NCBI RefSeq assembly: GCF_058153355.1
Contig: NZ_CM177019.1
Strand: one strand, 5' to 3'
Length of the DNA stretch: 64,000 nt
Position 1 is the stretch's first letter; every line of letters starts with the position of its first letter. A program made the position numbers. Shown here piece by piece: positions 55,601-58,600 of the stretch.

Positions 55601-58600
55601 TATAGCCAATATCTGGCGTTTGTTTGTCTGCGGCGTCTGGGAATGCGCAAATGGAATAACCGTTCAGTGGGTTATCGCTGTGGCGAAGCGCCAGAAATGC
55701 CGCTGGGCCGTGGCAAAGGGAGATAACAAAACGGTCATTTTTGATTGCCCACTGTAAAGCGGCAGCTACGTCCTGGCTTTCTGGTAAACCAATAAGTGCG
55801 CCATGACCACCAGGAACAAAGATTGCTGCATATTCGCTGTCAGCATTGAGGCTGGCGACAATATCCGCGAGTTTCTTCGGATTGCGGAACAACGATTTAT
55901 GCTGCTCAAAGAACGGCATTACCTTTTCATCTTTGTGTGGCATAGCCCAGTATTCAAACTTGGTCATCAGGCCGGAAATGGTCGCCACTTCGAATTCGAA
56001 ACCTGCCGCATGGAGATGATACAACGGTAGCAACGTTTCAATCGGATGGTTACCGGTTGAGAACAATTTGCCATTGTCGGTCGGCAAATAACGTTCGTCC
56101 GCGGCGATCACCAGAATTTTGTGTTTACCGCGATACGGTTTTGGATAGTCCACGCCATCAAGATCAGAGACAGGACTGGTATATTGGCTAAGCGAATATT
56201 CTGAAGGGAAAAATGCATTATCTTCAGCAGTATCGACCTGCGGATCTTTACTTTTTTGAACAGTCATAGTGTATTCCTTGTTGTTGCTTAGTTAGGTTAG
56301 TCACTATATTTGCGACTGAGCTGGTCGCTATTTTTAACCAGGCTGGAAAATTGAGTCAATATATCGAAAGCGGTAGGCGACGAGGGAAAATATGTAATGA
56401 TGATGCTGCACTGATGTTGAATGTTTCTCACGCCAAATTTTCCTTTTTGAGTCATGTGGTCACAAGTGACTTCAATGATTTTAGACCATTATCAGAGGTC
56501 TGGGACGACGATGAGAGATTTAGTGCTATGGAATATTGTTATTCTGTTGAATATTTATATCCCGGACTGCTATAGAAAAGGCTTTTTTCATGCACTATTT
56601 TTGCAAATATTTTTATATGGGAGGCGGTTTTGTTGCGGATTAATTCATAAGAATGCGCATTTAGTGAGTTGGCTGGAAGAGTTACTGGTAGATGTTAGTG
56701 AGCCAGGTAGTGCAGGGTAATGTGCCATATCGATATGCTTTGGCAATGGCGCGTTTTGTAGATGAAAAGCCAAAAAAAGCCTGAATTCGATGAAAGGACG
56801 AACTCAGGCTAGTGTTATGTTTTACAGTAACACGCCGAGGCGTGTTGGCTGATTAGAACTGGTAGACTAAGCCCACAGCAACGATATCATCGGTAGCGAT
56901 GCCGTTTGCTTCGTAGAAGTCATCATCGTTGTCCAGCAGGTTAATTTTGTAATCAACATAGGTGGACATATTTTTGTTGAAGTAGTAGGTCGCACCGACT
57001 TCAACGTATTTAACCAGATCTTTGTTAGTGTAACGCGGGTCGCCGTTGCCGTCATGAGCCCAGCCGCCTAAATCCTTACCTTTAGATTGCAAGTAAGCGA
57101 TGGACGGGCGCAGACCGAAGTCGAACTGATACTGAGCAACAACTTCAAAGTTTTGGGTTTTGTTAGCGATGGCTGATCTTGAATCACCATTAGCAAACTC
57201 GCCACCACCATATGGGGTCATATTGCGAGTTTCAGCGTACATAGCTGCTAAATACACATTATTAGCATCATATTTTGCACCAACAGTCCATGCTTCAGCG
57301 GTTTCACCACCAGCATTTCTGTTGCTATGGTTACGATCATTTAAACCAACTCCAACCTGATGATCTGAACGATCAGAGTTTGAATATGCAGCACCCAGAT
57401 TTAAACCGAAGTCGAAGTCGTAGGATGTAGACATACCGAAACCATCACCATTTTCTTTGGAAAGGCTACGGCCATCACCACTACCGGAACCTTCCTGCCC
57501 GAATGGTCCACCACTTTCATTATTACCCTGATATTGTAAAGCAAAGTTCAAGCCATCAACCTGACCAAAGAAGCCATTATTACGGTAGGTTGCAACACCG
57601 TTGGTACGACCGTTCATGTAGTTGTCGGCACCCGCGTAGGTATCGCCACCAAATTCTGGCAGCATATCGGTCCATGCTTCGATGTCATATACGACACCGT
57701 AGTTACGACCATAATCGAAAGTACCATTCTGACCAAAACCTAAACCTGCGAATGCCAGACGGGTAGCTGAGTTATCTCCATCGCCTTCTGTGCCATTTGC
57801 TTGAAGGTTGTATTCCCACTGACCATAGCCAGTGAACTGGTCAGCGATTTGTGTTTCGCCTTTGAAACCGATACGGGCATATGACATATCGCCATCAGCG
57901 CCCGAGTTGTCAGAGAAGTAGTGCAGACCTACTACTTTTCCGTATAAATCCAGTTTATTGCCATCTTTATTATAAATTTCAGCCGCATTTGCTGCGCCAG
58001 CAACTAATAACGCCGGGACCAGCATTGCCAGAACTTTTCTTTTCATTATGTATTCCCTTGTGATTATAATCTTCATGAATATAACAATAAGTGCCGTTAT
58101 CCAAAAAAAAGCACATTTGGATACTATTCTATGAAGTTCATTTTATTTTAAGGATTACATGTAACAAATGTATTTAAAAGATTGCAAAATGTTTCTAATC
58201 TATTTAATATAATTCATGCAAATGAATTATGAATATAACCATTCATGATGGTTATGGATGTATATCAATGAGTTATGAATTTTATGGAAAGATAGGGAGT
58301 GTCAATGATTTTTGCGCCAGACGGCCTATGTGATCGCGCGCACATTAATGAAGGCATAAAAAAAGCCGGCATCATGCCGGCCCAAAAAATATAAACAAGA
58401 CGATAAAAGGCTAATAACGGGGTTATCATGACACAGAAATCTAAAAAGGTATAATTGTATTCAGTGCTAATGTATTGTTTGGGTGAATTAATAAAACCAT
58501 TATCCAAGATAAAAATAAATCTTTATTGCTGTTTTTCCGGTAATTATTGCCGTTGCGCAAAAACTATCTATTTGCTCAAAAAATGATTGAGTCTTGACTG

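Follow-up and report, generated by a model that had tools for sequence, protein, structure and literature searches.

This locus raises the question of whether the porin gene lying between rseX and hchA is an intact form of yedS, a gene that is broken in E. coli K-12, and of what an intact form would mean for the cell. The window, that is, the whole 64,000-nucleotide stretch of contig NZ_CM177019.1 analysed here, had previously been read from its sequence alone, without database searches. This sequence-only reading described an uninterrupted OmpC/OmpF-family porin of 397 amino acids at 56853-58046, with a signal peptide and a C-terminal barrel signature, stated that yedS is split into pseudogene fragments in K-12, and proposed that an additional functional porin could alter permeability or the phage receptor repertoire. 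We conclude, with a probability of about 0.9, that the gene is an intact allele of yedS, an accessory general porin gene of the OmpC family located between rseX/drpB and hchA.

The proposed coordinates and length proved exact. The yedS coding sequence occupies 56853..58046 on the minus strand (397 codons and a stop codon) and encodes an intact general-diffusion porin precursor. Translation from the ATG at 58046 gave 397 amino acids without frameshift or internal stop, down to the terminal residues VGLVYQF. The ORF listing of the window contained a longer frame of 407 amino acids (56853..58076, minus strand). The ATG at 58046 was preferred because a Shine-Dalgarno-like AAGGGAA motif, read from the sequence, is present 6 nt 5' of it (58053..58059, minus strand), because the resulting MKxKVL start aligns with those of OmpC and OmpN, and because it is also the start chosen by PGAP in the closest complete genome, whose coding sequence of 1194 nt aligns to the window over its full length in a single piece. 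The alternative ATG further upstream, at 58076, was rejected: it has no Shine-Dalgarno motif, it would add 10 residues before the n-region of the signal peptide, and MKRKVL is where the homologues and the PGAP annotation begin. The signal peptide is encoded by 57984..58046 (minus strand, residues 1-21). The N-terminus of the protein aligns with the OmpC signal peptide, as anticipated, and residues 9-21 are those of the K-12 OmpC signal peptide. By comparison with OmpC, cleavage is predicted after residue 21, before AEIYNK, and the product would consist of an OmpC-type signal peptide of 21 residues followed by a mature protein of 376.

The order of genes in the window, hprS (53950-55308, plus strand), hchA (55416-56267, minus strand), the porin gene, rseX, drpB, yedJ and dcm, is the one found around yedS in K-12, and the 11.9-kb block is collinear with K-12 in one piece at 94.0% identity. 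The small RNA gene rseX (58358..58447, minus strand; Rfam RF01401, 99.8 bits for a gathering threshold of 50) lies directly upstream of the porin gene, oriented as it is in K-12, and has its own terminator (58383>58363). In K-12 MG1655, yedS (b4496) is annotated as a pseudogene of 1193 nt (NC_000913.3, 2034051..2035243). Alignment of this pseudogene with the window gene, a check that the sequence-only reading had itself suggested, gave 93.7% DNA identity over 1194 columns, with a single indel of 1 nt which corresponds to the K-12 deletion. The differences between the two genes are concentrated at nt 130-300 and 400-500. The first K-12 lesion is a CAG to TAG change at codon 162 (nt 484-486), where the window has CAG; the second is the absence of one T at nt 663, which is present in the window. 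After both lesions the K-12 remnants measure 171, 69 and 134 amino acids. K-12 yedS is thus a split pseudogene, as had been stated, and the window gene carries neither of its lesions. By locus and by identity, the window porin gene is orthologous to K-12 yedS. Locus, gene order and signal peptide are the same and the 5' region is almost identical; the window allele differs by lacking the TAG codon and the 1-nt deletion, and its exact protein is rare.

The product matched the Pfam family Porin_1 (PF00267) from end to end (profile positions 1-337 of 337, E value 3.5e-144, 480.8 bits for a cutoff of 23.7). The mature protein aligned over its full length with the sequence of the OmpK37 crystal structure (6v78, E value 1.8e-146), and the structures matched by sequence were OmpK37 first, then OmpK36 and OmpC. 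An AlphaFold2 model built on an alignment of 15 sequences, of moderate confidence (pLDDT 64, pTM 0.65), contained 16 strands and a short N-terminal strand. The top Foldseek matches of this model were all enterobacterial porins (probability 1.00, TM 0.82-0.86), the best being again 6v78 with a target-normalised TM of 0.84 and 64% identity. The constriction residues of OmpF are conserved, with K16, R42, R82 and R132 corresponding to K37, R58, R96 and R147 of the window protein and the acidic pair D113/E117 to D127 and E131. The PEFGGD motif of loop L3 is also present, its GGD being G133-G134-D135, and the C-terminal beta-signal ends in VYQF, which bears out the proposed barrel signature. Judged on these features, the window gene belongs with the general bacterial porins and has every trait defining the family that a sequence can display.

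Among the K-12 paralogues, protein identity was 71% with OmpN, 66% with OmpC and 64% with OmpF. OmpN is therefore the closest K-12 paralogue, and OmpK37 of K. pneumoniae, with the same 16-strand barrel and L3 residues, the closest solved structure. Insertions in surface-exposed regions make the window protein longer than OmpK37 and OmpN by 20-40 residues. It shares the Pfam family, the signal peptide, the PEFGGD motif and the C-terminal YQF with OmpC, OmpF and PhoE, and scores below the NCBIfam equivalog cutoffs of both OmpF and PhoE. It passed the NCBIfam "porin OmpC" model NF007841 (539 bits for a cutoff of 484), and PGAP names its homologues "ompC: porin OmpC"; both observations could be taken to mean that the gene is not yedS at all, being instead the true ompC of the strain or a foreign porin acquired horizontally. 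NF007841 is however a subfamily model and not an equivalog, the gene sits between rseX and hchA as in K-12 and not beside micF and rcsD, and its 93.7% DNA identity with K-12 yedS contrasts with only 66% protein identity with K-12 OmpC. We consider this alternative very improbable. The assignment to true ompC (K-12 b2215) was rejected on the same grounds of neighbours and identity, and an orthologue of ompN/OmpK37 was rejected as well, given 71% identity with OmpN and a locus which, unlike that of ompN, does not adjoin micC and uspF. The PGAP label applies at the level of the subfamily and can invite confusion with the real ompC.

The frequency of intact alleles was estimated on 17 complete E. 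coli genomes, taken at even steps along the ranking of matches to the window gene. An intact gene of 352-404 amino acids was present at the yedS locus in 11 of them. The other six carried six different lesions: the nonsense codon and frameshift of the K-12 type, a 1-bp deletion at nt 606 in O157:H7, a 1-bp deletion at nt 343 in FORC_029, an IS1 insertion in EH08-18-36, an IS3 insertion in MB20, and a P2-like prophage inserted after nt 86 in 2012C-4502. The locus has therefore been inactivated repeatedly, by independent events, among the sampled genomes. The prophage genes found within yedS of 2012C-4502 (L017, 2498-5086) comprise ogr/Delta, late control D and tail genes, indicating that the porin gene can serve as a phage integration site. 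On a larger scale, 4,888 of the 5,426 complete genomes of E. coli contained a match to the window gene, and the strong polymorphism of the locus explains why only 1,660 of them reached at least 80% coverage. The two K-12 lesions were traced with 81-mers that span them; exact copies of these occurred in at most 370 and 357 of the 5,426 genomes, and the carriers among the matches listed were laboratory or K-12-type strains. With 11 of 17 sampled genomes intact and the K-12 lesions rare, K-12 is the exception and not the rule: intactness is the common state, and the K-12 pseudogene is a lineage-specific loss. The contrast with K-12 implied by the sequence-only reading is thus real where K-12 itself is concerned, and weaker than supposed for the species. 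An intact yedS is an already described, common state in E. coli, and K-12 serves poorly as a reference here.

The exact window protein is recorded in NCBI as an E. coli porin, from a few draft assemblies. The best match to the window allele in a complete genome was 97.8%. This nearest complete-genome allele is intact and differs by eight residues, most of them conservative changes (I/V, Y/F, D/E, N/S), none of which touches a constriction residue. Comparison of the window allele with five further intact alleles from its own class gave a dN/dS of 0.10-0.16 overall, falling to 0.03-0.09 for the barrel together with the turns, L3 and L8, with a within-class synonymous divergence in the barrel of dS 0.4-0.7. 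At the level of sequence comparison, such low ratios indicate purifying selection, hence a long-term constraint on the protein. Variable positions numbered 64 of 116 in the predicted external loops L1, L2, L4, L5, L6 and L7, against 25 of 260 elsewhere. Variation focused on loops in this way is what one usually sees in a protein that is produced, exposed at the cell surface and under selection.

An open frame may nevertheless hide a recent inactivation, for instance through a mutated promoter or a harmful missense substitution, which would make the gene a pseudogene in waiting. The independent lesions in 6 of the 17 sampled genomes, at a locus that is often lost, are in line with such a view, as is the limited identity (78-89%) between the flanking non-coding DNA of the window and that of other E. 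coli. Against it, the few differences from the nearest annotated intact allele spare the constriction, the region from -80 to -1 differs by about one base from that of K-12 and of other alleles, and the identical protein occurs in at least three independent assemblies. We regard a hidden inactivation as improbable and retain the reading of an intact yedS.

Alleles found at the yedS locus share between 60 and 98% amino-acid identity. At least four allele classes of 352-404 amino acids were distinguished at the rseX-hchA porin locus (L002-L017), with 60-72% protein identity between classes, a divergence similar to the distance between OmpC and OmpF. The signal peptide, the first 110 nt and the 5' UTR are identical or nearly so across classes. 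Tentatively, phages, colicins or host immunity may maintain the diversity of this locus, as a source of "spare receptors", through balancing or frequency-dependent selection, an idea to which we give rather little credence. If it were correct, the rare allele of the window would be an expressed surface variant with a phage or antibody specificity of its own.

We then considered whether the intact gene is likely to be expressed. An intrinsic-terminator-like element (56771..56810, minus strand) was detected downstream, made of a 12-bp hairpin (56778-56810) followed by a U7 tract (56771-56777). The hairpin lies 43 nt 3' of the yedS stop codon and has a minimum free energy of -33.6 kcal/mol (z = -7.5 relative to shuffled sequences). 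With the Shine-Dalgarno-like motif at one end and this strong terminator-like hairpin at the other, yedS looks like a complete transcription unit. The intergenic region between rseX and yedS (58060..58357, minus strand, about 29% GC) is the presumed promoter and regulatory region. It contains two weak sigma-70-like matches on the correct strand (58233>58206 and 58167>58140, 9/12 each), and the promoter scan upstream of yedS gave no more matches than shuffled sequence (8 versus 5.9 +/- 2.7 expected).

These data bear on a further possibility, namely that yedS is intact and yet effectively silent, a "quiescent" gene like those of OmpN and OmpK37, bringing no gain in permeability or phage receptor repertoire during ordinary growth. 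OmpN and OmpK37, which are poorly expressed in the laboratory, are the closest relatives of the window protein. The 300 nt upstream of the gene contain 29% GC, as would be expected for a gene silenced by H-NS, the sigma-70 matches in this region do not exceed chance, and H-NS/StpA are reported to repress the adjoining rseX gene of K-12 (PMC8313858). On the other side, the low dN/dS of the barrel, accumulated over its synonymous divergence, requires that the protein be made and selected in nature, and a putative porin, described as 50% homologous to K-12 YedS, has been detected in a Shiga-toxin-producing strain (PMC9731836). Silence of this kind is a possibility that we take seriously, while holding it to be less probable than its opposite; it concerns the level of expression only and is compatible with the explanation by an intact yedS. 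Expression of yedS is probably low or conditional, judging by the high AT content upstream of the gene and by the published finding that H-NS represses its neighbour rseX in K-12.

Small RNA control was also considered. Warner and colleagues are said to have found that yedS is regulated in a MicF-dependent manner. RNAduplex predicted no site for the first 35 nt of MicF in the -80 to +40 region of the window gene (-11.2 kcal/mol, z +0.3), whereas the ompF positive control gave -27.4 kcal/mol (z -5.3). In comparison with OmpC and OmpF, the window gene therefore has neither a micF neighbour nor a predicted MicF site in this region. Pairing between RseX and yedS reached -17 kcal/mol with a z score near 0, the ompC control itself being weak (z -2.3 with the window RseX and -0.4 with the K-12 RseX).

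If YedS functions as other members of its family do, the precursor would be exported by Sec, and the barrel would be inserted by the BAM complex through its C-terminal beta-signal. YedS trimers would then form water-filled channels, through whose L3-narrowed pore small hydrophilic solutes, including beta-lactams and carbapenems, could diffuse passively. Phages, colicins and antibodies would encounter the protein at its long variable surface loops. Given a low or conditional expression, YedS might matter most when OmpC and OmpF are lost or when H-NS silencing is relieved. According to the summaries of Warner et al. 2013 (Antimicrob Agents Chemother 57:1935) given in PMC4048246 and PMC11267920, an active yedS porin is involved in carbapenem susceptibility. 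The earlier suggestion of a possible effect of an extra porin on permeability agrees with this published work on carbapenem entry through YedS. With an intact yedS the strain has one more potential diffusion channel, able to affect susceptibility to beta-lactams and carbapenems when both OmpC and OmpF are lost, and a further potential surface target for phages. Porin-loss scoring in resistance-genotype pipelines should include yedS. Beyond correct annotation the significance of the finding is small, such a role having been described in 2013 and the intact gene being common in E. coli.

Several features of the surroundings were recorded. Over 52108-64000, the window was 94.0% identical to K-12 2028096-2040000, with 91.5% for yedJ, 93.5% for hprS and 94.0% for dcm. 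Among 5,426 complete genomes of E. coli, the majority matched the window in the 90-95% identity band, the best reaching 98.1%. A divergence of about 6% is unusual for E. coli sensu stricto and may mean either that the source, labelled E. coli, belongs to a divergent or cryptic lineage of Escherichia or that the region is a recombination hotspot. The drpB frame (58594-58977, plus strand) is open, with 127 amino acids from a TTG for a K-12 protein of 100 amino acids. In several sampled genomes, including O157:H7 E32511, ST540 and FDAARGOS_944, drpB is annotated as frameshifted or with an internal stop; this neighbour of yedS is therefore also often lost. In the spacer between yedS and hchA, a small ORF (56454-56720, plus strand) runs convergently to yedS and corresponds to a 69-aa gene in other assemblies with the same allele. 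It has no annotation in K-12 and no family match on record; in some genomes PGAP places "hypothetical protein" genes of 64-136 amino acids in this spacer, on the same strand as this ORF.

The left part of the window is occupied by a prophage of about 45 kb (approximately 2608-48700). Its tyrosine integrase gene (2750-3775, minus strand) directly adjoins a tRNA-Ser(cga) gene (2608-2697), and a tRNA-Asn gene is located at 1541-1616. The prophage contains a C4 antisense RNA (7600-7687), isrK (7712-7788), an IS66 transposase gene inserted among the late genes (41022-42593), and a gene for a protein with a tail-fibre N-terminal domain (43887-45299). At its right end lies an intact gene for an IpaH-family type III effector of 547 amino acids (46053-47696, minus strand), with an LRR_TTSS domain and a NEL E3 ubiquitin-ligase domain (E value 1.4e-76 for NEL). 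E. coli FDAARGOS_944 has a homologue annotated as a frameshifted ipaHe. Next to the effector gene, at 47824-48003 and 48760-48963 on the plus strand, are matches to the Rfam families CssrB (230 bits), the "chromosome-encoded Shigella sRNA B", and IS009. The intact IpaH-type gene together with CssrB suggests an EIEC/Shigella-like or otherwise T3SS-associated background.
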